A DNA stretch of 64,000 bases from Terriglobia bacterium (GTDB lineage Bacteria; Acidobacteriota; Terriglobia; Acidiferrales; UBA7541). Shown one piece after another: positions 1,975-64,000 of this stretch (the stretch's first letter is position 1; each line of letters opens with the position of its first letter). The translations under genes and the position numbers were made by a program. Where the stretch lies: contig JAIQES010000010.1 in the NCBI GenBank assembly GCA_020073705.1, forward strand, positions 20,166-84,165. The letters are read 5' to 3'. A model generated the notes under the pieces. It saw only the letters and a list, made by a program, of their open reading frames with translations. It was not told where the DNA came from and ran no database searches.

Positions 1975-3005
1975 ACGACCCGCAACGGGTCGCCGTAGTC
2001 GGAGCGACGGGCTATGCAGGTTTCGAGCTGGCCCAGCTTCTCCTTCGGCACCCGAAAATTCAGAAACCAATCTTTTATCTGCGCGAGAGTTCGGCGCAAG
2101 TAAAGTGTTTGACCGAGATTTTTCCGCGTCTGCGCGGCTGGGGGGAAGCGCCCTGCAGTGCTTTCTCGGTCGACGCTGTGGCTGCGAGCGGCGCAGGCAC
2201 GGTGTTTCTTGCGACGCCGCATGAAGCGTCGCTCGAGCTGGTGCCGCAACTTTTGAACGCGGGCCTGCGCATCGTGGACCTGAGCGGGGCGTTTCGCTTC
2301 CGCGATCCGGAAACATTCGCGCAGTGGTACAAATTGCCGGCGCCGCCGCGCGAGCTGGCGGAGGAAGCCGTCTATGGCCTGCCGGAGCTGTACGCCGGTC
2401 AGTTGCCGGGCGCGCGGCTGGTCGCCAATCCGGGCTGCTATCCGACGAGCGTGATTCTCGGCTTGCGGCCGCTGGTGGAGTCCGGCTGGATCGCGCGAGA
2501 GCGCGGCATCGTCTGTGATTGCAAGTCCGGCGCATCGGGCGCGGGCAAGGAGCTGAAGCGCGAACTGCACTTTGTCGAGGTGGACGAAAACCTGCGCGCT
2601 TACTCGCTATTCTCGCACCGGCACACGCCGGAAGTGACCGATCACACAGGCATCGGCGGCAACGACATCATCTTTACGACGCATCTGCTGCCGGTCTCAC
2701 GCGGCATTCTTTCGACGCTATACGTGTGGCTCGCAGAACCGCACACGGCTGCGGATATCGAGGCGCTGTTTCGCCAGTTCTTTGCGGGGCATCCGATGGT
2801 GCGCATCTGGCCGGCCGGGAAGCTGCCGGAGCTGCAGCACGTGGCCTACACCAATTTCTGCGACATCGGTTTTGCGCTCGATGCCGGGGGGCGGCGCCTC
2901 GCGGTGGTGAGCTGTCTCGACAATCTTGGCAAGGGCGCCGCGGGCCAGGCCGTGCAGAACATGAACGCGATGCTGGGCATCGAGGAGGCCACAGGACTCA
3001 GATGA
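1971..3005 (+). CDS. argC: N-acetyl-gamma-glutamyl-phosphate reductase
   Basis: 344 aa. N-terminal VAVVGATGYAG Rossmann motif and NPGCYPTS active-site Cys motif. Its ATGA overlaps the argR stop. Confidence 0.95.
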   Translation: MNDPQRVAVVGATGYAGFELAQLLLRHPKIQKPIFYLRESSAQVKCLTEIFPRLRGWGEAPCSAFSVDAVAASGAGTVFLATPHEASLELVPQLLNAGLRIVDLSGAFRFRDPETFAQWYKLPAPPRELAEEAVYGLPELYAGQLPGARLVANPGCYPTSVILGLRPLVESGWIARERGIVCDCKSGASGAGKELKRELHFVEVDENLRAYSLFSHRHTPEVTDHTGIGGNDIIFTTHLLPVSRGILSTLYVWLAEPHTAADIEALFRQFFAGHPMVRIWPAGKLPELQHVAYTNFCDIGFALDAGGRRLAVVSCLDNLGKGAAGQAVQNMNAMLGIEEATGLR

Positions 3006-3820
3006 GAATGGTCGTTAAAGTTGCCGGAGCATTGCTCGATGACACGCCGGCGTTGGAAACGCTGGCGCGTCAGGTGGCGCAACTCGCTCACCAGGGCCAC
3101 GAAATTTTGGTGGTGCATGGCGGCGGAAAGATTTTTACCGCTACGCTCAAGCGCATGAATATTGAGAGCCGGTTCGTCGGCGGACTGCGCGTTACAGACC
3201 GCGAAACACGCGATGTCGCGGTGATGGTTCTGGGCGGCCTGCTCAACAAGCGCCTGGCCGGAGTAATTTCGGCGGCGGGACAGCCCGCGGTGGGCATCTG
3301 CGCCTCCGATTCCGGATGCTTTCTGGCCGAGCCGATGATGCACGATGAAGTCGCCGGCGCTTTGGGGTTCGTGGGATATTTGACCGGCGCGAATCTGGAG
3401 TTTATCGAGTCGTTCTGGAAAGCGGGTATTGTGCCAGTGGCATCGTGCCTGGGTCTTGGCCCTGACGGGGAGCTCTACAACATCAACGCCGACCACATGG
3501 CCGCCGCGTGCGCGGAATATATTCATGCTGACCGGCTGATCTATCTCACCGACGTCGCCGGCGTGCTCGACGGCACGAAAGTGCTCAAAGTCGTCTCGAC
3601 CGGCGATGCCGAGGACCTGATCCGCCAGAATAAAGCTTCCGGCGGGATGATTCTGAAGCTCGAAGCGTGCAAGCGCGCGCTCTCTGCCGGTGTCGCGGAG
3701 GTGCGCATTGTCGGTGGCTCGGTGCCCAAGGGGCTGCTGGCTGCGGCAAACGGCACGCGGTTTCCCGGCACGCGCGTCACGTCGGAGTTCCCCGCAAGCG
3801 CCGCAGGAGTGGCGCGTTGA
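3002..3820 (+). CDS. argB: acetylglutamate kinase
   Basis: In-frame ATG at 3002 inside ORF 2519..3820, giving MRMVVKVAGALLDD...LVVHGGGK. This is the amino-acid kinase fold. Its ATGA overlaps the argC stop. The part of the track ORF upstream of 3002 is antisense/overlap noise. Confidence 0.9.
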   Translation: MRMVVKVAGALLDDTPALETLARQVAQLAHQGHEILVVHGGGKIFTATLKRMNIESRFVGGLRVTDRETRDVAVMVLGGLLNKRLAGVISAAGQPAVGICASDSGCFLAEPMMHDEVAGALGFVGYLTGANLEFIESFWKAGIVPVASCLGLGPDGELYNINADHMAAACAEYIHADRLIYLTDVAGVLDGTKVLKVVSTGDAEDLIRQNKASGGMILKLEACKRALSAGVAEVRIVGGSVPKGLLAAANGTRFPGTRVTSEFPASAAGVAR

Positions 3821-5127: not shown

Positions 5128-6071
5128 ACATGAATGCGCAGGCCCCCGCTTTGAGCTTCTCCTCCAGCCTTCTGACCGGTGCGGAATGGAACGACGCGCA
5201 CGTCCGCGAGCTGTTTCATCTGGCCACGGACGTCAAAGCCCATCCGGACCGCTACCACGGCGCCCTCGCCGGCCGGTTTCTAGCGATGATTTTTGAAAAA
5301 CCGTCGCTGCGCACGCGGGTCACCTTCGAGATCGGCATTGCGAGCCTGGGTGGCACGGCCATTTTCCTCGACCACGCGAACGCGCGTTTGGGCGAGCGCG
5401 AATCGATTGCCGATGTCGGGCGGAGCCTTTCGCGCTGGGTGCAGGGGATTGTGGCGCGCGTGTTTTCGCAGGAAGCGCTCGAGACCCTGGCGGCACATGC
5501 AAGCGTTCCGGTCATCAATGCGCTCTCGGATCTCTATCATCCCTGCCAGGCGCTTGCCGATTTTTTCACGCTCGAGGAAAAGTTCGGCTCCGCGCGCGGA
5601 GTAAAGCTCGCTTACATCGGCGATGGCAACAACGTTTGCCATTCGCTGATGATCGCCGGGGCCCGCGTCGGCGCGCACGTGCGGATCGCGACGCCCGCGG
5701 GCTACGAGCCCAACGCCAAGGTCGTCGAAGCGGCGCGGCGTGATGCGGCCGCCACGCTGGGCACAATTGAATTGTTCCGCGCGCCTGAGCAAGCCGTTTC
5801 TGGCGCGCAGGCCGTGTACACCGACGTCTGGGCCAGCATGGGCCAGGAAAGCGAGGCCGAGGCGCGCGCCGCCATTTTCGCGCCCTATCAGGTCAACGCC
5901 GCGCTGATGTCCCACTCCGCGCCTGATGCTATTTTCCTCCATTGTCTTCCCGCGCATCGCGGCTCCGAAGTCACCTCCGAGGTGATGGATTCGCCGCGTT
6001 CCATCGTGTTTGAACAGACTGAGAATCGCCTGCACGTGCAGAAAGCCATTCTGTTGATGCTTCTAAGCTGA
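5124..6071 (+). CDS. argF: ornithine carbamoyltransferase
   Basis: 315 aa with [20 protein letters not shown] and [11 protein letters not shown] motifs. GTG 5124 overlaps the argD stop. An ATG at 5130 is also possible. Confidence 0.9.
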
Positions 6072-6082
6072 AAGGACAACCC

Positions 6083-7276
6083 GTGCCAAAGAAAGTAGTT
6101 CTCGCCTATTCAGGCGGACTTGATACATCAATTATTATTCCGTGGCTGAAGGAAACGTACAATTGCGAAGTGATCGCCATGATCGGCGACGTCGGCCAGC
6201 AGGAGGATCTGAAAGCCGCCAAGCGCAAGGCGCTCGCGACCGGCGCCTCCTCGGCGACCATCGAAGACCTGCGCGAAGAGTTCCTGACCAACTACATCTG
6301 GCCGACCCTGCGCGCGGGCGCGGTGTATGAACACAAGTACCTGCTCGGCACTTCGATGGCACGGCCCGTTCTGGCCAAGCGCCAGGCGGAAATCGCGCTT
6401 AAAACCGGAGCCGACGCGGTGTCGCACGGCTGCACCGGCAAGGGCAATGACCAGGTACGGTTCGAGCTGGCTTACAAAGCGATCGCGCCGGGCGTGAAGA
6501 TCATCGCGCCGTGGCGTGAATGGACCATCAATTCGCGCGAGGACGCCATCAACTACGCGCGTGCACACAACGTGCCCATCGAGCAGACCAAAGCGAACAT
6601 TTACTCGCGCGACCGCAACATTTGGCACCTGAGCCATGAGGGCAGCGTGCTCGAAGACCCCGCCGACGCGCCCGAAGAGACGATGTGGCAGTGGATCGTC
6701 TCGCCGGAGAAAGCGCCGAATAAGCCCGTTGAAGTCGAGATCGGTTTCGAGGCAGGCACACCGGTTTCGGTCAACGGCAAGAAACGTCCTGCCGTGGCGC
6801 TGCTCGAGGAACTGAATAAGATCGCGGCGGCGCACGGCGTCGGACGGATCGATCTGGTCGAGAACCGCCTGGTGGGCATCAAGTCGCGCGGCGCGTACGA
6901 GACGCCTGGCGGCACGCTGCTGGTAACGGCGCATCGCGAGCTCGAAACGCTGTGTCTGGACCGCGAGACGGCGCACTACTCGGAAGTTCTCGCGTTGCGG
7001 TACGCCGAACTGGTCTATTACGGATTGTGGTTCACGCCGCAGCGCGAAGCGCTCGATGCCTATTTCACGGCCGCGCAGCGGCGCGTCACCGGCGCCGTCG
7101 GCCTGAAGCTCTACAAGGGCAACGTCACGGTTACCAAGCGCACTTCACCGTATTCGCTCTACCGCAAGGGACTGGCGAGCTTCGCCATGACCGGTTACAA
7201 CCCGAAGGACGCCGAGGGCTTCATCAATCTATTCGCGCTGCCGGTGACGATCCCGGAGGGAGCAAAAGTACGGTGA
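6083..7276 (+). CDS. argG: argininosuccinate synthase
   Basis: 397 aa with the [11 protein letters not shown]-loop and the [13 protein letters not shown] motif. Confidence 0.95.
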
Positions 7277-55686: not shown

Positions 55687-55746
55687 AAAACCACCTCGCG
55701 TTTCTTCCGTTGTTCTTGATGGATATCTGCTGAATCACTCCGCGAT

Positions 55747-57171
55747 TCAATCATTCTTGAGGCCCGCGAGTTGCAGGGCCAGCGAAAAAGCCCTTCCGGG
55801 ATCGTATGCTCGGAACATAGCTAGCTTCTCTGCTTCGATCGATCCTTCAGCATGGACAGCGAGGAGCGCTTGGTAGCCGCCGTAGAGACGCGTGCTGAGT
55901 TCCCCAATCAGGTTGAGCATAGCCAGCCGTCGGTCGGTCGGCCACGCGCCTTGCAAATACTTCTCCAACACCGGGCGGACCTCCGCAGATTCCCAGTCCA
56001 TTCCGGATGGCCCCGTGACCAAGAGGCCACCAGCAAGGTCTTGGACAGTTTCAAGCGCCTTGTGAAAGTCGCGTGCGAACGTCCACTTTGCCATGTTGGA
56101 GGTGAAGACATGAGGGTAGGCCACCCCGGCCTCCACCTCACACCGCAGAGCTGCAAGCTCGGTCAGCCCCCGAACCGTCTCGGCGTAGCCAACAAGCCAG
56201 GTCAGCTTATCGCGGACATGGCCTGCGTGGTCGATGCCGTTCGCCCGCGCGATTGCGATTCCAGCACCTACAAGGGCGTCGAGCAATGGCAGCTTGTAGC
56301 TTACCGCAGTAAACCGGTGGAACTCCACAAACGTGAGTGCAGCCGCGCCGGCCAAATCAGGCCGGTCCACAAAAAACACGCGTTCCCATGGAACGAACAC
56401 GTTGTCGAACACGGTGAGCGTCTCGATCATTTTGTGGTTCGTTGAGATAGGACGGGTGAACGGATCGTCGCTGCCGTGCAAATAGTCCGATGCGTAGAGG
56501 TGTACCCCGGGTGACGCCACGGGAATCGCGAAGGCCACGGACCAGGCTTCCTCGCCTAACCCCATCGTTCGGCTGGGAAGGACAATTACTTCATCGACAT
56601 ACGGAGTGCACGAAGTGTGCACCTTGGCTCCGCGAACTACGATCCCATCGTGCCGCTTTTCGACGACTCTGACATAAAGGTCCGGGTCCTTCTGCTCCGA
56701 AGGGCGCTTGCTGCGATCCCCTTTCACATCCGTCTGGGCCACGGCGAGCGCTAGGTCACGGTCACGGCACTTCCTGTAGAAAGCATCCACTCGCCCCAGA
56801 CCTGTTACGTCCCCATTTCGCGCGAGCACACGCTGGAGGGCGAATAACGCATCGGTTCCGATTTCCTTGACCAGGATGACTAGGGTGGCGCCTGCCGTTG
56901 TAGCTGTTTCGATCAACTTCGACCGCGCCATCAGGTCCTTTGCGTTGCGGGGTATCCGGTAGTAAGCCGAATACTCGTCGCCTCCCTCGCGGTAAACAGC
57001 TAGCTCGCGAAACTTCGGATTCTCGGCCAGTTGGAAGTCGATCGCCGCATGCCGGGCGGCCATGCCGAGCTCGGGATGGTCCGGCACCGCCTTCACCCGC
57101 TGTCCGCGGTAGTAGACCGTCCGGTCATCTCGCAATCCATCGAGGAACTGTTCAGGTGTTCGAACTCCCAT
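55747..57171 (-). CDS. 4-hydroxybutyryl-CoA dehydratase (AbfD) / HpaB superfamily protein
   Basis: 474 aa. TDVKGDRSKRPSEQKDPDLYVRVVEKRHDGIVVRGAKVHTS and VFDNVFVPWERVFF closely resemble the AbfD/HpaB family core. Confidence 0.75.
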   Translation of the reverse strand: MGVRTPEQFLDGLRDDRTVYYRGQRVKAVPDHPELGMAARHAAIDFQLAENPKFRELAVYREGGDEYSAYYRIPRNAKDLMARSKLIETATTAGATLVILVKEIGTDALFALQRVLARNGDVTGLGRVDAFYRKCRDRDLALAVAQTDVKGDRSKRPSEQKDPDLYVRVVEKRHDGIVVRGAKVHTSCTPYVDEVIVLPSRTMGLGEEAWSVAFAIPVASPGVHLYASDYLHGSDDPFTRPISTNHKMIETLTVFDNVFVPWERVFFVDRPDLAGAAALTFVEFHRFTAVSYKLPLLDALVGAGIAIARANGIDHAGHVRDKLTWLVGYAETVRGLTELAALRCEVEAGVAYPHVFTSNMAKWTFARDFHKALETVQDLAGGLLVTGPSGMDWESAEVRPVLEKYLQGAWPTDRRLAMLNLIGELSTRLYGGYQALLAVHAEGSIEAEKLAMFRAYDPGRAFSLALQLAGLKND

Positions 57172-57267
57172 TTCCGTGCCTCCTGCATATCAATCGTAGC
57201 CTGGATAACATACCACTTCACCCTCGTGCGGCACGACGGCCCAAGGGACTAACCCCCTTATGCTTGC

Positions 57268-58857
57268 TTAGGATTCGAATGAAGATGTGGTTAGCCGTGC
57301 CCGCAAAAGGTGTTTTTGAATCTTGCCCGTCGAGGTCTTTGGCAGCTCCTCGAACCGAATCTCCTTGGGTGCCTTGAAGTGCGCGATTCGACTGCGGACG
57401 AAGTTGATCAACTCGGCCTCGGTAGCCGACATGCCAGGCCTCAAAACAACGAAGGCAACAGGGACTTCTCCCCAATAGCTATCACTGCGCGCCACAACCG
57501 CAGACTCGAGAACAGAGGGATGTTCGGCAAGAACTTTCTCAATTTCCACGGAAGCAATGTTTTCGCCACCCGTGATGATAATATCTTTTGCGCGATCCTT
57601 GAGTTCAATATACCCGTCCGGGTGCCGGACCCCCAGATCACTCGTACGAAACCATCCGTGGATTCTAGCCGCAAGAGTTGCTTCTTCGTCGTGGTAATAG
57701 CCCATACAAACATTATTTCCACGAATCACGATTTCGCCGAGTGTCTCCCCGTCCGCAGGGACATCACGACCGCCCGAATCGACTACGCTGATGCCTTGCG
57801 TCACAACATTACCGATGCCTTGACGCGCATTCAGGCGTGACTTCTCGGTTTCTGGTTTATCTGACCACTCGGGCTGCCATTGATTTATGACCGCGGGGCC
57901 GTAAGTCTCCGTCATACCGTACAAGTGGGTTACCTCCATATTAAGAGCTGCTAATCGTGCGAGAATTGAAGGTGATGGAGGAGTACCTCCCGTTCCGACC
58001 TGAATGGGCCATGGTGGTTTGCGATCCTGCATCTTGTTCGCAGCTTCGGCGACCATCGTCAGGAGGGTAGGCGCTGCACTCATGTGGGTGACACCCCCGT
58101 CGCAGATCTTCATCCAGATTGCGTTTGGATCGATTTGACGCTGGCAGATGTGGACAGCTCCGGCGGCCGTGACAGCCCAGGTGTAACACCAGCCGTTGCA
58201 GTGAAACATGGGCAGCGTCCACAGGTATGAGCTACCCAGCCTCAGACGGGAATGATAGGCCACCGCGAGGGCTTGCAAGTATGCGCCACGATGATTGTAC
58301 ATGACGCCCTTTGGGCGTCCTGTGCTTCCACTGGTGTAGTTGATGGCGAGTAATGACTTCTCGTCGATCGCAGCAATCGCGCGCATCTGTGAACCTTCCA
58401 AGCGTTGCTCATACTCACTCGAGCGCGAGCCAGCGAGCAGCAACCTTACACCTGTATGTGCTGAAAGGCTTCGGGCGGTGTCCGCGAGTTCTTGTGTCGC
58501 AACGATCAGGCGTGCCTCGGAATTCTTAATGATATAGGCCATTTCCGCCACAGAAAGCCTGATATTCATCGGCACCAAAACCGCCCCAGCCATGGGCACA
58601 CCATTGTGCAGCTCAAGCATCACGTGGCTGTTGACGCAGAGCGCTGCAACCCTGTCCCCAGGTCGAATTCCAGCCTCATGAAGAAGCGCGGCCAGGCGAT
58701 GGGCTCTATCAGCAAACTCGCGATATGTGTAGCACAGTTCGCCGTCAATGATTGCTCTTCTGTTTGCGAATGCTGCTGCGGCACGATCGAGAAAGGACAC
58801 CGGACTAAGTGGAATCGCGGTTTCGTCGAGCATAAGGCACTCCAGTTCTGTGGCCAC
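57268..58857 (-). CDS. AMP-dependent acyl-CoA synthetase/ligase
   Basis: 529 aa with AMP-binding motif INYTSGSTGRPKGV, plus YGMTE and TGD-type motifs (FRTSDLGV, KDIIITGGENI). Confidence 0.9.
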   Translation of the reverse strand: MATELECLMLDETAIPLSPVSFLDRAAAAFANRRAIIDGELCYTYREFADRAHRLAALLHEAGIRPGDRVAALCVNSHVMLELHNGVPMAGAVLVPMNIRLSVAEMAYIIKNSEARLIVATQELADTARSLSAHTGVRLLLAGSRSSEYEQRLEGSQMRAIAAIDEKSLLAINYTSGSTGRPKGVMYNHRGAYLQALAVAYHSRLRLGSSYLWTLPMFHCNGWCYTWAVTAAGAVHICQRQIDPNAIWMKICDGGVTHMSAAPTLLTMVAEAANKMQDRKPPWPIQVGTGGTPPSPSILARLAALNMEVTHLYGMTETYGPAVINQWQPEWSDKPETEKSRLNARQGIGNVVTQGISVVDSGGRDVPADGETLGEIVIRGNNVCMGYYHDEEATLAARIHGWFRTSDLGVRHPDGYIELKDRAKDIIITGGENIASVEIEKVLAEHPSVLESAVVARSDSYWGEVPVAFVVLRPGMSATEAELINFVRSRIAHFKAPKEIRFEELPKTSTGKIQKHLLRARLTTSSFES

Positions 58858-58930
58858 GCAGCCGCAGGTTTACCCCACGCCATCCCGCCACAATAGTTAC
58901 CGTGCGTGCCGCACCCCCCGAGTCGCCGGT

Positions 58931-60178
58931 CTAATCGCTGCTGTTAGCGTGGCTAATCTCGGACGCCGACTGGAGCTGGACCTTGATCCAAGGGATCACA
59001 ATTTCTTCAGATATTCTGGAATTCGGCCATTCTTCCGAACGTCCGGTGTGTCCGCCTTCCGGATTGACCCAGGCCAGCTTGGGCGACCCGCCCGATTGCA
59101 GCAGCAGGTAGAGGTCGGAGATCGGGTTCTGGGTGTCCTTTTCCCCGTTGACAAGCAGCATCGGCACCGAGGGCCGGCCAAGGAACCCTTGCTGCTTCAA
59201 AGACAAACGCGGTCCATAAGCGAGAAATTCGTCCAGAGTCTTGACGCCGTATACCGCGGAGCGCGCGGCAAACAGGTCGAACAAATATTCGGGCGTGCCG
59301 AGCGACTTCTCCTGCCATTCCCGGGTGAAGAAAACATCCACCGGGCTCCCCTGCACCACTGTGCCGAGAAGACGGGCCCGTTCGATGTAGGCGAGATGCG
59401 CCGCCCAATGGCCGCCCCAACTTACGCCCCAAGCTACGACGCGCTTGGCGTCCACGTCCGGGCGGGTACCGAGGAAGTCGAGCACGCGCGAGAACATCCG
59501 CTCCGCACCTACATCGGCCTTGATCGGCGCCTCGCCGGTACCAGGCATATCTACCGCGACCAGGCCGATCCCACTCCGAAGCAAGGATGCATCTCCTTGA
59601 ATGAGATCCTCCTTGCGCGAGTCGACTCCATTGATCAGCAGGACGACCGGCACCGGCCGAGTGCTCTTCGGCAGCCGCAGATACCCCACCATTTCTTTGC
59701 CCTCGAAGGGAATTCGCACGACTTCGAGCGGCGGATCGAGAAAGCGCGCATAGTTGCGGAAGGCGGCGAGAGCGTTCTGGTAAGCCTTCTCTTTGCCGGC
59801 TGAGTTCGGCACCGGCCAGCGAGCGACAGTGTAGTAGCGAAACGCAAGCTGGTAATCCGCTTGCGCCGCTTTGTTGTCGCTGCTTGCCTCCTCGCTCTTG
59901 GCGCGCTTCGCATATCGCTCGCCGATCGCGCTCCACGCCGCAGCCCACTCGTCGCGGTCCAAGCTGTGGATGTTCGCGAGCGCCTCGCGGGCATCCTCAG
60001 ATTTGAGGCCCCCAACCGGGCTCAGATTCTTGTCGACGCGTCTTTGCGTCTCCACCTTGAGTTCTTCGATCGTGCGGGTCGGTGCCATCTGGGCAATCCC
60101 CGGCAACGCTGCAAACAGTACGACGATCATGCCGAGCAAGATTTGTTGCCTGCGGGATACGCCATCACGGACGAACAT
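58931..60178 (-). CDS. alpha/beta hydrolase (FrsA/esterase-like) with signal peptide
   Basis: 415 aa with nucleophile elbow GVSWGG, a helical N-terminal cap region, and the C-terminal LVNGEKD / EGGH pattern. Confidence 0.75.
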   Translation of the reverse strand: MFVRDGVSRRQQILLGMIVVLFAALPGIAQMAPTRTIEELKVETQRRVDKNLSPVGGLKSEDAREALANIHSLDRDEWAAAWSAIGERYAKRAKSEEASSDNKAAQADYQLAFRYYTVARWPVPNSAGKEKAYQNALAAFRNYARFLDPPLEVVRIPFEGKEMVGYLRLPKSTRPVPVVLLINGVDSRKEDLIQGDASLLRSGIGLVAVDMPGTGEAPIKADVGAERMFSRVLDFLGTRPDVDAKRVVAWGVSWGGHWAAHLAYIERARLLGTVVQGSPVDVFFTREWQEKSLGTPEYLFDLFAARSAVYGVKTLDEFLAYGPRLSLKQQGFLGRPSVPMLLVNGEKDTQNPISDLYLLLQSGGSPKLAWVNPEGGHTGRSEEWPNSRISEEIVIPWIKVQLQSASEISHANSSD

Positions 60179-60465
60179 AGTGCCTCTCCTTCTTCTCTCT
60201 CGAGGCTAGCCAGAATCCACGATCTTGGTGAAGCCGGGCCTCATGTCGAATTTGGGCACAAGCCAAGCCTATGGCTGCGCTCTGCCATTCAAATTCGCGA
60301 AGCCGGATCGACAACATGCCCTCGCACCGGAGAGCATAATCCACCGGCGCCCGGATTCCAACGATTTCGGGAGAGAGAGCCCGCTTGTCCGGCTTTGGTG
60401 CACGGCATAGGGGGCGGGCACGGAAAACACGACGCGGGCCCTCGCGACTGTTCTGCAGTGGCTCG

Positions 60466-61512
60466 CTACTGCCCGACGACGAGGACCGAAAACGTGCCGG
60501 GAATCGTGGGCGCTCGCGGGTTTGGGTTCGCGGGCGTTGGGTTGGGGCGCGGACCGACATCCGCGACAGGCAGGTACACCCTGCCGGTCTTATGGTCGAG
60601 GGCCATGGTCCGGGCTCTCGGTAATGTCTTCACGTTTTCGACGAGCGTATATTTGTCCGGGCTTTCCTGGTGAAAGATTGAGAGAGCGCCATCGCCGCCC
60701 CCGGTTGAGACATAGATCAATCCTGTCTTGGGGTCGAATTCCAACGCATCCACGCCCATGCCGATCGGCTGGGTGGCAACAATTTTTCCGGTCGCGCCGT
60801 CCACGACCGCCAAGAGGCCGCTCCTGCAGCCGATGAAAACGCGGTTATGAGCGCGGTCCATATCCATGCTGCTGGGCTGGCCGCAAGGGGGCGCCAGCGT
60901 CCAGGTTTCCATCACTTTCAGCCCTTGTGCATCGAGCTTGTGGAGCTTCCCGACATCCTGCATGTTCAAAAAGACGTGGCCAGCCTCATCGGAGGCCAAA
61001 TGCTCCGTTCTGCCCCCAAGATTTTCGATCGTGCCGGCGATCTTGCCGGTCTTGGCATCGATTGCGGTAACGCGTTTGCTGCCGCGATCGGCACTGAAAA
61101 CGCGCTGGGTCTTAGGGTCGTAGATAATCCCGTTCGGGTCGTCTCCCACCCTCGCTTTGCCGAGCACGGAGAGGGTTTTGAGATCGAACATAATGATCGA
61201 GCCGGGGTCGGTGGCGCTGATGAACCCATGTCCAAATTCCCGGGCGACGGCGACGCCGTGCACGTCCTTCTGACCGGTAATCTTTCCGACGATGGCGCCG
61301 GAATCGAGATCGAGCACAACCACTTGCGTGCCGTTCGGAACATATAACCGGCGGCCTTCGGTGTCGGCCGTAATGTAGTCCCAGTCGGAATCGCCGGGGA
61401 TGGGAATCCGCTTGATCACATGATACCCATCCGCTGCCGCCAGCGTGGACGCGAGTGCTGCGAACAACGCCAGCCGGCGGACCGTCAGCCCGAGGGTCTT
61501 TGGGGTCCTCAT
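60466..61512 (-). CDS. YncE/YVTN-type beta-propeller repeat protein, secreted
   Basis: 348 aa with signal peptide LALFAALASTLAAA and repeated blades (RLYVPNGTQVVVLD, HGVAVAREFGHGFISA, RVFSADRGSKRVTAID, RVFIGCRSGLLAVVD, LIYVSTGGGDGALSIF). Confidence 0.75.
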   Translation of the reverse strand: MRTPKTLGLTVRRLALFAALASTLAAADGYHVIKRIPIPGDSDWDYITADTEGRRLYVPNGTQVVVLDLDSGAIVGKITGQKDVHGVAVAREFGHGFISATDPGSIIMFDLKTLSVLGKARVGDDPNGIIYDPKTQRVFSADRGSKRVTAIDAKTGKIAGTIENLGGRTEHLASDEAGHVFLNMQDVGKLHKLDAQGLKVMETWTLAPPCGQPSSMDMDRAHNRVFIGCRSGLLAVVDGATGKIVATQPIGMGVDALEFDPKTGLIYVSTGGGDGALSIFHQESPDKYTLVENVKTLPRARTMALDHKTGRVYLPVADVGPRPNPTPANPNPRAPTIPGTFSVLVVGQ

Positions 61513-61889
61513 AGGTCTTGATCCTCCGTTACATCTTCACGCTTGGGGTAAGTTGCTCCGCCAATCGGAATCTCAATCTTCGATTTCCGGCCGAGCGGGA
61601 TTATACGTCCGGCCGCCTCCGCATTCAATTCTCCAGGTCTTTCGACCGGTGGAATGTCACGATGAAAGCCGAAGCCTAGAATTCTCGAGGACCCGAGCCA
61701 ATGGCGGTGAACCCGTTCACCGGCAACACATTTTGCCCAAAACTAGTTCTCTGTCGTCAACGAATTCAATGAAGTACGATTCATCCAACACGATACTGAT
61801 TTAGTCCTCCACTTCAGTCTCCAAGCTTTCTACTTTTCTTCCAGCGGTGACTTCGTTTATTGTTGGGTGTTCGAACTGAGAGGTGAGCC

Positions 61890-62240
61890 ATGGCCGTTCG
61901 CATCTGTCCGCACTGCAAGACCGAAATTACCGCTGCAAACGTCGCTGCGTACTCCGATCGTGTCGAGTGTCCCCAGTGTAAGACGCGGCTCGAGGTCGCA
62001 CCGGGCGCACGGACACTCTCCTCGTTTTTCGGCCTTGCCGCTGCGGCGATTGCGTGGCGGCTCTCGAGCAATTCCGGCGGAAACCTCAGCGGCGTCCTGC
62101 CGACGCTGTATGCGTTTCTCGCTTTCGGCATCGTGTCGCCGCTTGTTCTGATGTTCACGGCGAGTCTGCGCAACGCCTCTGCTCTCCCGGTCCCTGAACC
62201 CGTTCCTGTTGCGGGCGGTCACGGCGGCGCACATCACTAG
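61890..62240 (+). CDS. zinc-ribbon membrane protein, hypothetical
   Basis: 116 aa. CPHCKT...(17 aa)...CPQCKT is followed by two hydrophobic helices. Confidence 0.5.
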   Translation: MAVRICPHCKTEITAANVAAYSDRVECPQCKTRLEVAPGARTLSSFFGLAAAAIAWRLSSNSGGNLSGVLPTLYAFLAFGIVSPLVLMFTASLRNASALPVPEPVPVAGGHGGAHH

Positions 62241-62496
62241 AAATCATCTGGCTCTGTTGACATCCTCCCCGGTCTTGATTTTTGTGCTGGCGCCGGCTAT
62301 CCAGTGCTGTAGCTTGCCTCTTCAGAGGCGAGGCTTTTCTGCAAATCGCCAGAAACCTCCCCATGTCTGAAGCTCGAACTGGCCTGCAACATTCACCGCC
62401 TATGGCCATTGCCAGAGGTGGAAGCGGATGCCTACAGAACCAGATGGTTTATATGTTGCCGCAAAAGTCTTGATAAGATAGGCGTGCAGTAACGGT

Positions 62497-62619
62497 GCCC
62501 GGGTGGCGGAATGGCATACGCGGGGGACTCAAAATTTCACCAGGGCTCCTGACCCCGGAAACTAACGTGTAAAGTTCCCCTGGCTGCTTTATGATACGTA
62601 GCTGCAGATAACCGGCCAC
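62497..62619 (+). pseudogene. decayed tRNA-Leu-like copy (intact 5' half, no T arm)
   Basis: GCCCGGGTGGCGGAATGGCATACGCGGGGGACTCAAAA (62497..62534) parallels the first 34 nt of the downstream tRNA-Leu, with an identical D arm. TCCCC, which could close the anticodon stem, occurs only after a 41-nt insert (62535..62575). The remaining 39 nt lack a TTCNA T-loop and match the acceptor complement in only 5 of 7 positions. Confidence 0.45.
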
Positions 62620-62926
62620 GCGGGCGTGGCGGAATGGCATACGCAGCGGACTTAACACACCTTGAGTGCTCGCCGGGAAACCGGCGATGCAGAACTGCTC
62701 AAATTCGGGGAAACCTTAACTGGCGATCCCGAGCCAAGCCTGAAGCAATGTTTCAGGAAGGTGTAGAGACTAGACGGGCAGCGCCTAACCTCCAGTGTTG
62801 CGGAGTAAGGTGAAGGGATAGTCCAGACCGCAAACCTGCGATGTCAGGGCGGCGAAAGCCGTAGACGGTAAGAAAATCCGCAGGGCTGCAAGGCCCGTGT
62901 GGGTTCAACTCCCACCGCCCGCACCA
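62620..62926 (+). tRNA. tRNA-Leu (anticodon UAA) interrupted by a group I intron; CCA encoded
   Basis: The exons are 62620..62653 and 62873..62926, together 88 nt. Acceptor stem GCGGGCG/CGCCCGC, anticodon stem GCGGA/TCCGC, loop CTT|AAAA, long variable arm AGGGCTGCAAGGCCCGT, T arm GTGGG-TTCAACT-CCCAC. Confidence 0.85.
62654..62872 (+). ncRNA. group I (IC3-like) self-splicing intron, 219 nt, no ORF
   Basis: P1 pairs ACUU|AA with UUGAGU (62662..62667), placing a U.G wobble at the 5' splice site. P2 is TCGCCGG-GAAA-CCGGCGA (62670..62687). Core strings are CTCAAATTCGGGGAAACC (62698..62715), CCCGAGCCAAGCC (62728..62740) and GAAGGTGTAGAGACTAGACGG (62757..62777). The terminal G is at 62872. Confidence 0.8.
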
Positions 62927-63233
62927 CCATTCTTGTCAATTCGGGCTTCGCGTGTGAAAACCACGCTGCGGTAACGTCTTTCGAAGTGTTTAGCTTGAGG
63001 CGAGAAAAATGAAAACCGGAACCAAGTTCGTAACGTTCGGTATTCCCGATGATGACCAGCTTCTATCTGCTCTTGGAGCAGTAACCATCCGCCACGGACA
63101 ACTCAATCACATTTTGCGGATGACCATAAAGACTCTTGCACCGAGCTTGCGATCGGCCCGCAGAAATTACAGAGAAGCCCTAATGGCCGGACAGCCGTAC
63201 CAATATCCTAAATTGTTTGCAATTCGCGCCGAG

Positions 63234-64000
63234 TCACTTCACCCATACGGTCTTTATGTTCGTAAATTCGCGGATCCCATAGCTGCTCAATTCCCGGCCA
63301 TGTCCGGACCGCTTCACCCCGCCGAACGGAACCCGGGGATCGGAAGCCACCATTTGATTAATGAAGACCATGCCCGCTTCGAGCTCATTGATGAAGCGTT
63401 CTTGCTCGCTCTTATCGTTCGTCCATGCGCTCGCTCCGAGTCCAAACCGGCTGTCATTGGCGATTCGAATCGCCTCATCCACATTCTTCACCCGGAAAAT
63501 CGACGCTACCGGACCAAACAGTTCTTCACGATAAGCCGGAGAATCTTTCGGAATATTCGTCAAAACCGTGGGCATGTAGAAATTTCCGGCGCGCTCGACG
63601 GGCTTGCCGCCCGTCAAAAGCCGCGCGCCTGCTTCGATTGTCTTGCGAACATCGGCATGCAGGGAGGTAACGGCGCCGGCTGTGGCTAGCGGGCCCACAT
63701 CGGTCTTTTCATCGAAGGGATCGCCGAGAATCAGGCTTTCCATCCGGCTGACGAAAGCGCGTTCAAACCTGTCTGCAATTTGATCGGCAACGATAAAGCG
63801 CTTGGCCGCAATGCAGGATTGTCCGTTGTTGCCCACACGGGCCTTGACGCCGGTTGTGACGGCCTCATCCAGATTTGCGCTGGGCATGACAATAAAAGGA
63901 TCGCTGCCGCCGAGTTCGAGAACGACCTTCTTGACTCTCTTGGCAGCCCCCAATCCAACCGCTATTCCGGCGTCTTCGCTGCCTGTCAGAGTGGCCGCCG
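63234..64000 (-). CDS. NAD(P)-dependent aldehyde dehydrogenase (succinate-semialdehyde dehydrogenase-like), C-terminal part; 5' end outside window
   Basis: The reading frame continues to the window edge (..AATLTGSEDAGIAVGLGAAKRVKKVVLELGGSDPFIV..). Catalytic motifs are ELGG and NNGQSCIAAKR, followed by EELFGPV and PFGGVKRSG. Confidence 0.9.
   Translation of the reverse strand, partial: AATLTGSEDAGIAVGLGAAKRVKKVVLELGGSDPFIVMPSANLDEAVTTGVKARVGNNGQSCIAAKRFIVADQIADRFERAFVSRMESLILGDPFDEKTDVGPLATAGAVTSLHADVRKTIEAGARLLTGGKPVERAGNFYMPTVLTNIPKDSPAYREELFGPVASIFRVKNVDEAIRIANDSRFGLGASAWTNDKSEQERFINELEAGMVFINQMVASDPRVPFGGVKRSGHGRELSSYGIREFTNIKTVWVK

Follow-up and report, generated by a model that had tools for sequence, protein, structure and literature searches.

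Whether the distribution of tRNA-Leu introns reflects ancient inheritance or lateral transfer is an old question, and it is raised here by a tRNA-Leu(UAA) gene interrupted by a group I intron in a 64,000-nt stretch of DNA from a Terriglobia bacterium (GenBank assembly GCA_020073705.1, contig JAIQES010000010.1, positions 20,166–84,165 of the forward strand; this whole stretch is referred to as the window, and positions are given in its own numbering). An earlier description made from the letters alone, which we refer to as the sequence-only reading, had noted that the intron occupies the classical cyanobacterial and plastid position in what looked like an acidobacterial context, and suggested either an unusual lineage retaining the old intron or a lateral transfer. 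We consider it very likely that this is a functional tRNA-Leu(UAA) gene of a Terriglobia acidobacterium near Candidatus Acidiferrales, with a 219-nt IC3-type intron between U34 and A35, and that the interrupted form is the usual one for this gene and is fixed in the lineage. The interest of the locus lies in a relic of a second tRNA-Leu gene just upstream (62497–62534) and in what relatives show about it, rather than in the presence of the intron.

An interrupted tRNA-Leu(UAA) gene and its intron

When introns are allowed, ARAGORN places a tRNA-Leu(taa) gene at 62620–62926 on the forward strand with a 219-nt intron after position 34, and these are the coordinates given in the sequence-only reading for a gene split between U34 and A35 by 62654–62872. 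Exon 1 (62620–62653, + strand) provides positions 1–34, ending in U34, and is identical in the three nearest copies of the gene (L168, L220 and L156; handles of this kind denote loci fetched for comparison), and exon 2 (62873–62926, + strand) begins with A35 and continues through the long variable arm, the T-arm and the acceptor strand to the discriminator A and CCA. The joined exons form a canonical 88-nt tRNA-Leu with the features of type II (a 7-bp acceptor stem, the anticodon UAA, a long variable arm, discriminator A73 and an encoded 3′ CCA), the stems of which covary across 86 homologues. It should be noted that the interrupted gene was missed by ARAGORN in default mode and by the Rfam tRNA model, and that the intron option was required to find it; default tRNA finders overlook such genes, with the result that genomes appear to lack tRNA-Leu(UAA). 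No other tRNA-Leu(UAA) gene was found in the 64-kb window by ARAGORN in default mode.

A search with the Rfam group I intron model Intron_gpI (RF00028) gave a match to the intervening sequence (62654–62872, + strand), covering 62644–62841 and the full model (positions 1–253); the score of 52.5 bits exceeds the gathering score of 50, and the E-value, calculated for the whole window, is 1.8e-10. We wrote an explicit structure for the intron, modelled on the Azoarcus layout and on the consensus structure of the seed alignment of Williams (2020; bioRxiv 10.1101/2020.01.27.920355), and every pair in this model and in the tRNA is a standard pair. P1 (62651–62666) joins 62651–62655 to 62662–62666, that is, exon CUU plus intron AA to UUGAG, and contains the splice-site wobble U62653–G62664; U62662–U62663 can pair either with the first two As of the intron (in P1) or with the first two As of exon 2 (in P10). 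P2 (62670–62687) is a 7-bp hairpin (62670–62676 with 62681–62687) with a GAAA tetraloop. The catalytic core from P3 to P8a (62695–62824), which is also seen in the RF00028 match and in covariation, comprises P3 (62695–62700 with 62776–62781), P4 (62705–62710 with 62727–62732), a minimal P5 of 2 bp, P6 and P6a, P7 (62766 and 62768–62772 with 62819–62824, leaving A62767 bulged), and P8 and P8a with a CCUAA...UAAGG receptor-like motif, and P3 and P7 form a pseudoknot. Beyond it, a P9 three-way junction (62827–62869) is built from P9 (ACCG/CGGU), P9a and a P9b with a GAAA loop, with compensatory changes in all three helices, and the intron ends in the omega G (62872), which is placed by ARAGORN and lies at a junction conserved in homologues. 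All of these elements are on the forward strand.

The hallmarks named in the sequence-only reading (the U–G pair at the splice site, the GAAA-capped P2 and the terminal G) all find their place in this full P1–P9 structure, and the three core strings it quoted are present and recur in the reference bacterial tRNA introns of the seed alignment. It was also right that there is no homing-endonuclease gene, as the longest stop-free stretch in the 219-nt intron is 63 codons and no open reading frame (ORF) with a family match lies inside. The intron folds better than shuffled controls (z = −3.1) and is 59–81% identical to the bacterial tRNA introns with which it was compared, the four classical types of which are marked IC3 in the intron database cited by Williams. 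Judged from sequence and predicted structure, it is a group I intron, probably of the IC3 type.

Covariation among homologues supports an active ribozyme, on the evidence of 86 aligned sequences. A 21-mer from J2/3-P3-J3/4-P4 of the window intron (GAACTGCTCAAATTCGGGGAA) was scanned against one genome per species and gave at least 120 matches; among the 120 listed, 94 are tRNA-Leu(taa) genes with a 200–279 nt intron as called by ARAGORN, and the junction CTT/...G/AAAA is found in 92/92 of the listed genome homologues called at position 35/36. After sequences at least 95% identical to another had been removed, 86 remained, and in their alignment 96.5% of cells pair, compared with 33–43% when the 3′ partners are slid by 1–3 columns. 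Both sides have changed in 46 of the 87 pairs, and 0/500 shuffles reached any observed measure. These two-sided changes affect 7/7 pairs of P2, 6/7 of P6a, 4/4 of P8a, 3/4 of P9a and 3/5 of P9b, and compensatory changes are seen in P5, P6a, P7, P8 and P8a. The splice-site U–G pair is invariant (86/86), and the P1 pairs flanking it vary among A–U, G–U and G–C.

Splicing would proceed by steps that follow established group I chemistry. The precursor would be transcribed from a conserved block upstream of the gene and the intron would fold into P1–P9, after which exogenous guanosine would attack after U34, held in the U–G wobble of P1. The terminal G62872 would next enter the same site in P7, and the freed 3′ OH of exon 1 would attack the 3′ splice site, with exon 2 aligned by the short P10, to give the 88-nt tRNA.

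Several points weigh against a functional gene with an active intron. The RF00028 score is just 2.5 bits over the gathering score, and the 12 seed sequences of that model include no bacterial ones. We derived the tested structure from one of the aligned sequences, that of the window itself, and this gives it an advantage over the slid controls; the invariance of P3 and P4 is partly a product of the scan pattern, which left their 5′ strands no freedom to vary. We infer splicing activity from conservation and covariation, and our view covers 64 kb of the genome, so that a second tRNA-Leu(UAA) copy is possible elsewhere. It could be argued from the near-threshold score, and from the gene being known here as a sequence alone, that this is a decaying pseudogene whose intron no longer splices. 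This is extremely improbable given that all helix pairs of the tRNA and intron are standard, that the U–G wobble, the terminal G, the bulged A of P7 and the GAAA loops are intact, that purifying and compensatory evolution has been strong over the 86 homologues, and that no other tRNA-Leu(UAA) gene was seen in the window.

Host, distribution and origin of the intron

The window gene shares 96.5%, 95.8% and 94.3% identity with its counterparts in the metagenome-assembled genomes (MAGs) L168 and L220 (uncultured Acidobacteriota) and L156 (Candidatus Acidiferrales, an order of Terriglobia), respectively. In these nearest copies exon 2 differs only in the variable arm, and a non-coding upstream block is held in common. 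An HpaB-like protein encoded at 55747–57171, 5.5 kb from the gene, has its best NCBI-named homologues in Terriglobales (78–80% identity). The window is acidobacterial, of the class Terriglobia, and not cyanobacterial, and the context proposed in the sequence-only reading is borne out by both the gene copies and the HpaB-like homologues.

The suggestion of an unusual lineage did not survive comparison, as at least 120 species were matched by the 21-mer, 94 of those listed have a tRNA-Leu(UAA) gene with the same junction, and the class has already been catalogued. Among the 120 matches listed, 36 are from Acidobacteriota (Acidobacteriaceae, Terriglobales, Bryobacterales, Sulfotelmatobacter and Acidiferrales), many are from Alphaproteobacteria and several from Gamma- and Betaproteobacteria, and there is one MAG each from Tepidisphaeraceae (Planctomycetota), Pseudobdellovibrionaceae (Bdellovibrionota) and Binataceae (the grouping was made by hand, and 'Candidatus Porisulfidus' was left unplaced). 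Some 5,292 tRNA genes that contain a group I intron have been recorded in ~80,000 bacterial genomes, with Leu.3Ug as one of four classical types (Williams 2020), and the window gene adds one acidobacterial member to the Leu.3Ug class.

We also scanned metagenomes with an exon-only pattern, which matches intron-bearing and intronless alleles equally, and recovered 31 complete tRNA-Leu(UAA) genes. The intron is present in 19/19 of those at least 84.4% identical to the mature tRNA of the window, and all 8 intronless genes are at most 84.1% identical to it. The intron appears to be fixed among the relatives of the window, and an intron-bearing tRNA-Leu(UAA) gene is the ordinary state in this lineage and in many other non-cyanobacterial bacteria, and no rarity.

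A looser core pattern was used with the viral-contig collection IMG/VR (L002–L121), where at least 66 of the matches listed are tRNA-Leu(UAA) genes that an intron interrupts at the same site. These viral-labelled genes are AT-richer, and many of the matches lie a few hundred bases from the end of the stored locus; they are either phage genes or host genes at prophage borders. Patterns combining ACTTAA with the core matched none of the viral loci, the introns of which differ outside the core. The same 21-mer is also found in introns of genes called as tRNA-Met(cat) by ARAGORN (L122, L138, L171, L176, L191, L216, L232 and L240) in Neisseriales, Aquitalea, Silvimonas, Burkholderia and Paraburkholderia. 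It is probable that they represent the Azoarcus type of tRNA-Ile2(CAU) intron, in which case near-identical cores occur in different tRNAs.

A neighbour-joining tree of the introns alone forms clusters that follow host order or family, with the window intron placed with those of L220, L168 and L156, a cluster of 15 from Acidobacteriaceae and Terriglobales, and further Bryobacterales clusters. The nearest neighbour is acidobacterial for 25/26 acidobacterial introns, and taken together the acidobacterial introns do not form a single clade, alphaproteobacterial ones being interleaved among them. This is a rough tree of short sequences with deep history beyond its resolution, and it fits what may have been long vertical inheritance within orders after older lateral events.

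The clustering by host, the apparent fixation among relatives, and the common tRNA, U34/A35 site and IC3-type architecture might all be explained if the intron were the ancient cyanobacterial and plastid tRNA-Leu(UAA) intron, received by vertical descent from a common bacterial ancestor. However, it has 60% identity to the tRNA-Leu intron of Synechococcus elongatus and 63–73% to the introns that other bacteria have in tRNA-Thr, tRNA-Arg and tRNA-Lys (the Synechococcus value is lower than those for the compared Thr and Arg introns), the acidobacterial introns are interleaved with alphaproteobacterial ones, and displaced halves of intronless tRNA-Leu genes and integrases beside the gene, described below, indicate gene replacement. 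We consider ancient descent quite unlikely, and the retention of an old cyanobacterial intron put forward in the sequence-only reading receives no specific support. More improbable still is a recent and sporadic acquisition by a single genome, in which the intron would have homed or reverse-spliced into a gene that lacked it. Mobility is known for group I introns, and metagenomes do contain intronless tRNA-Leu(UAA) genes that resemble the window gene in T-arm and acceptor stem, but the intron is without an endonuclease ORF, three distinct species-level MAGs have 94–97% identical copies, and all close relatives sampled are intron-bearing, the intronless genes being more divergent. The lateral transfer suggested earlier does receive support, in the form of transfer of the whole gene on integrative elements and not of homing of the intron.

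A tRNA relic and probable integrative elements

The relic upstream of the gene (62497–62534, + strand) is the 5′ half of a second, intronless tRNA-Leu gene, recognised by sequence identity and by homologous relics elsewhere, and consists of an acceptor strand, the D-arm, the 5′ strand of the anticodon stem and the loop (GCCCGGG-TG-GCGGAATGGCATACGC-GGGGGA-CTCAAAA). It lies 85 nt (62535–62619) upstream of the intron-bearing gene, with 19 nt (62503–62521) identical to the D-arm of that gene and 32 nt matching at 90.6%, whereas its acceptor strand, GCCCGGG, differs from the GCGGGCG of the intron-bearing gene. Homologous GCCCGGG relics are found upstream of the intron-bearing gene in L156, L194, L213, L215, L238, L267, L296 and L300. 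In the last seven of these the relic is 65–85 nt upstream of the gene and reads GCCCGGG, the D-arm and ...GGACTTAAAA/GTCCGATCGGG..., with an uninterrupted anticodon loop followed by foreign sequence, and in L156 it reads GCCCGGGTGGC and is then cut by a deletion. The relics in relatives end at the anticodon loop (CTTAAAA). The tRNA closest to that of the window in the metagenome set, L311, links the window's GGGGGACTCAAAA to GGGGGACTTAAAAGTCCGAT and has GGGGGACTTAAAAGTCCGAT where the window has GGGGGACTCAAAATTTCACC, which makes the 'CAA' of the window relic a decayed TAA.

Both halves of a broken gene can be seen in two loci. In L194 (Bryobacteraceae; L194:883–6233) a matching 3′ half (AAAGGACTTAAAATCC...CCCGGGCACCA) lies 5.3 kb downstream of the 5′ half, and removing the 5,263 bp between two copies of AAAGGACTTAAA (a 12-nt core) restores a perfect 88-nt tRNA-Leu(UAA) with the acceptor stem GCCCGGG/CCCGGGC, compared with GCGGGCG/CGCCCGC in the intron-bearing gene inside the insert. 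In L206 (Rhodospirillales; L206:944–2726) the direct repeat is exactly the loop CTTAAAA (7 nt), and removing 1,696 bp restores a perfect 87-nt tRNA-Leu(UAA). An intron-bearing tRNA-Leu(UAA) gene is inside the insert in both cases. The L194 insert also holds genes for a LuxR-type response regulator, a PAS histidine kinase and a TonB-receptor-like protein, and no recombinase was found among its three large ORFs; the L206 insert consists of the intron-bearing gene and one 300-aa ORF of a PHROG with function not assigned, which is not a recombinase (hhalign probability 0.04). A 3′ relic also lies ~170 nt after the gene in L347, and a match to CCCGGGCACCA in L197 was dismissed as chance, there being no T-arm beside it. 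The acidobacterial MAG L238 has, on the reverse strand, two copies 3.1 kb apart (2764–3174 and 5932–6305) of a module made up of CTTAAAAGTCCGATCGGG..., the intron-bearing tRNA-Leu(UAA) and ~50 nt, and only the first copy abuts the 5′ relic.

In six further loci, an ORF of 396–426 aa lies on the same strand as the intron-bearing gene, which it separates from a 5′ relic ending CTTAAAA(TCC). Four of these are from Alphaproteobacteria (L181:5368–6570, L182:1560–2801, L218:2110–3300 and, on the minus strand, L214:4293–5558) and two from Acidobacteriaceae (L198:2239–3468 and, on the minus strand, L235:3105–4385). The six proteins are 57–60% identical to that of L181 across both phyla and contain the tyrosine-recombinase motifs NTGLRPDEA, YSLRHTYI and EKYYASH, with weak matches to Pfam Phage_integrase and SAM-like families and a match to PHROG_1 'integrase' at 1.4e-27; the integrase profile had no sequence match in PDB.

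Counts of relics and integrases were taken over all fetched loci. For the 92 intron-bearing tRNA-Leu genes from genomes, there are 14 relics (12 ending CTTAAA), 19 integrases or fragments and 7 cases with both, and for the 21 from metagenomes the corresponding numbers are 11 (9), 5 and 4; the 67 genes from viral contigs have neither relic nor integrase. An integrase, intact or decayed, is thus found upstream of the gene in 24 loci (19 genome and 5 metagenome), mostly ending within ~150 nt of it, and many of the matches are short decayed fragments. Loci that combine a relic with a full-length integrase are arranged as relic (−1414 to −1523), integrase, 18–148 nt, and tRNA. No 3′ half was found within 1–10 kb downstream in the integrase-carrying loci, and since the far junction lies beyond the 1–10 kb available, the placement of the tRNA inside the element is direct only for L194 and L206 and is presumed elsewhere. 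The Bryobacterales-type junction sequences differ from those of the integrase-carrying types, which points to more than one event or element family, and the junction GACTTAAAAGTCCGATCGGG is absent from IMG/VR. We note that a related integrase (54% identity; L335:1236–2429, minus strand) adjoins a 3′ fragment of tRNA-Leu(UAG) that starts at the anticodon loop (~2540–2624, plus strand), which suggests that sister integrases target another leucine isoacceptor.

The combination of integrase, relic and intron-bearing tRNA is probably a real mobile unit in the relatives of the window, and on balance we think that the window's own relic stems from an insertion event of this kind. The complete intron-bearing gene would have been brought into the lineage by an insertion that struck the anticodon loop of an intronless tRNA-Leu(UAA) gene already resident there, with the decayed 5′ half of the resident gene surviving at 62497–62534 and the integrase since lost. 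Speaking against this, the window contains no 3′ half of the relic gene (the window ends 1.07 kb after the intron-bearing gene, which is why none is visible) and no integrase trace by tblastn (E below 1e-5), and the relic loop reads CAA. The same observations, together with the short distance of 85 nt and the identical D-arm, which could reflect duplication or gene conversion, would suit the remnant of a local tandem duplication or a dead tRNA-Leu(CAA) unrelated to integration. We regard this as a serious though rather unlikely alternative, in view of the GCCCGGG strand, which is not that of the neighbouring gene and is common to relics in at least 8 other loci, of the L194 relic, which matches a 3′ half (CCCGGGC) 5.3 kb away and joins with it to form a perfect tRNA, of L311, where the GGGGGA stem strand recurs together with a TAA anticodon and the standard junction, and of the relics in other phyla, which likewise stop at the anticodon loop and have an integrase after them.

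Three other candidates were rejected. A remnant of tRNA-Leu(CAA) or of the 'Leu.3Cg' intron type described by Williams was set aside on the strength of L311, for the reason just given, and a duplicated exon together with the start of the intron, with similarity continuing into P1/P2, is ruled out because that stretch is a promoter-like block conserved in relatives. The region 58185–62524 is reproduced independently by Logan contig L001 at 99.98% identity, and this contig, the only other assembly of the sequence, stops at 62524, just past the 19-nt D-arm copy of the relic, perhaps because the repeat broke the assembly. L156, an independent assembly from another species in which both flanks are contiguous, rules out a chimeric join at this repeated 19-mer.

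The simplest account of these loci is that integrative elements use the anticodon loop of tRNA-Leu(UAA) as their core, do not rebuild the target, and carry their own tRNA-Leu(UAA). A wider proposal, which we put forward tentatively, is that non-cyanobacterial intron-bearing tRNA-Leu(UAA) genes, including that of the window, are or descend from the compensating cargo of tyrosine-integrase elements that destroy the resident gene at CTTAAAA, and that these elements have spread the intron across phyla. As the intron lies exactly inside the 7-nt core (CTT/AAAA), the integrase would not find a DNA target in the carried gene, and it is conceivable, if doubtful, that the intron protects the element's own tRNA gene as a target site. 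If true, target-site protection would be a DNA-level function for a bacterial tRNA intron, and target disruption a testable reason for a tRNA gene to keep its intron. Integrase-linked cassettes, seen in both Acidobacteriota and Alphaproteobacteria, offer a concrete and testable vehicle for the distribution of tRNA-Leu introns. We found no description of a link between integrase elements and intron-bearing tRNAs in the literature searched, which omits most subscription journals, and it is plausible that intron-bearing tRNA-Leu genes take over from resident genes by a route that has apparently not been described, the replacement of the whole gene by integrative elements.

Turning to the surrounding sequence, the promoter-like block (62564–62619, + strand) between relic and gene has a −35-like TGTAAA (62568–62573), a 16-nt spacer and a −10-like TATGAT (62590–62595) that ends 24 nt before the tRNA start. 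The block (..GTGTAAA/ATGCAAA..N..CTATGATA..) is kept upstream of the gene in L126, L156, L168, L184 and L220, and from this conservation we infer that it may act as a promoter; a simple sigma-70 consensus scan gave no call on it. Downstream, a 226-aa ORF (63009–63689, + strand) without a family match overlaps, in antisense, the C-terminal part of an aldehyde dehydrogenase gene (63234–63953, minus strand) and is probably spurious. The three nearest intron relatives (L156, L168 and L220) have no flanking genes in common with the window. Four metagenomic contigs (L242–L245) encode a 95%-identical HpaB and share just the AMP-ligase/HpaB pair (55727–58887) with the window at 93.6% nucleotide identity before diverging completely; they reach no tRNA-Leu locus and are without the window's FrsA-like hydrolase and beta-propeller genes (58887–62500), and the region beside the tRNA thus varies between close relatives. 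GC content is 55–67% in 2-kb windows, and the remaining genes of the window are typical of a soil heterotroph.

Comparison with known introns and integration systems

Ncf2.Leu.3Ug, from the Williams (2020) seed alignment, has 81% identity to the window intron over 215 aligned positions and shares with it the tRNA, the site (CUU/a...g/AAAA) and the helices. The strings of J2/3-P3-P4, the base of the P6 stem (GCC-AAG ... AA-GGU), P7 and P9b are identical in the two, and differences are found only in the peripheral hairpins P5, P6a, P8a and P9a. The cyanobacterial and plastid tRNA-Leu(UAA) intron (Sel1.Leu.3Ug of Synechococcus elongatus, and that of Anabaena) has the insertion site, IC3-type architecture and absence of an ORF seen in the window, whereas Sel1.Leu.3Ug, at 60% identity, has other P3/P4 strings and a longer P5. 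The cyanobacterial core is GCAGAGACU where that of the window is GUAGAGACU, and the window host is not a cyanobacterium. The tRNA-Ile(CAU) intron of Azoarcus (Aol6.Ile2.5Ug), the structural model for IC3 ribozymes, has near-identical J3/4-P4, P6 and J6/7-P7 strings and, like the window intron, GAAA loops on P2 and P9 and a CCUAA...UAAGG receptor-like motif in P8. It differs in being inserted in another tRNA and after position 36 rather than 34, with 59% overall identity, a longer P5 and a simpler P9. A tRNA-Leu(UAA) intron was also reportedly described by Vepritskiy et al. in J Bacteriol in 2002 in a deep-subsurface gamma-proteobacterium; it would be the earliest non-cyanobacterial precedent.

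The closest parallel for the elements is tRNA-dependent lysogeny in actinobacteriophages, in which the anticodon loop of a host tRNA gene contains a short core where a tyrosine integrase recombines, without restoring the tRNA (Guerrero-Bustamante and Hatfull, mBio 2024, PMC10865867). In those phages, examples of which include tRNA-Lys, the tRNA genes are uninterrupted, whereas here the carried tRNA-Leu(UAA) has an intron in the core. Unlike them, the elements here are not recognisably phage (with no IMG/VR matches), and the window has just a fossil, with the integrase missing. The arrangement found in tRNA-dependent lysogeny nevertheless matches that of L194 and L206, with cores of 12 and 7 nt, and that of the loci in which relic, integrase and intron-bearing tRNA follow one another.

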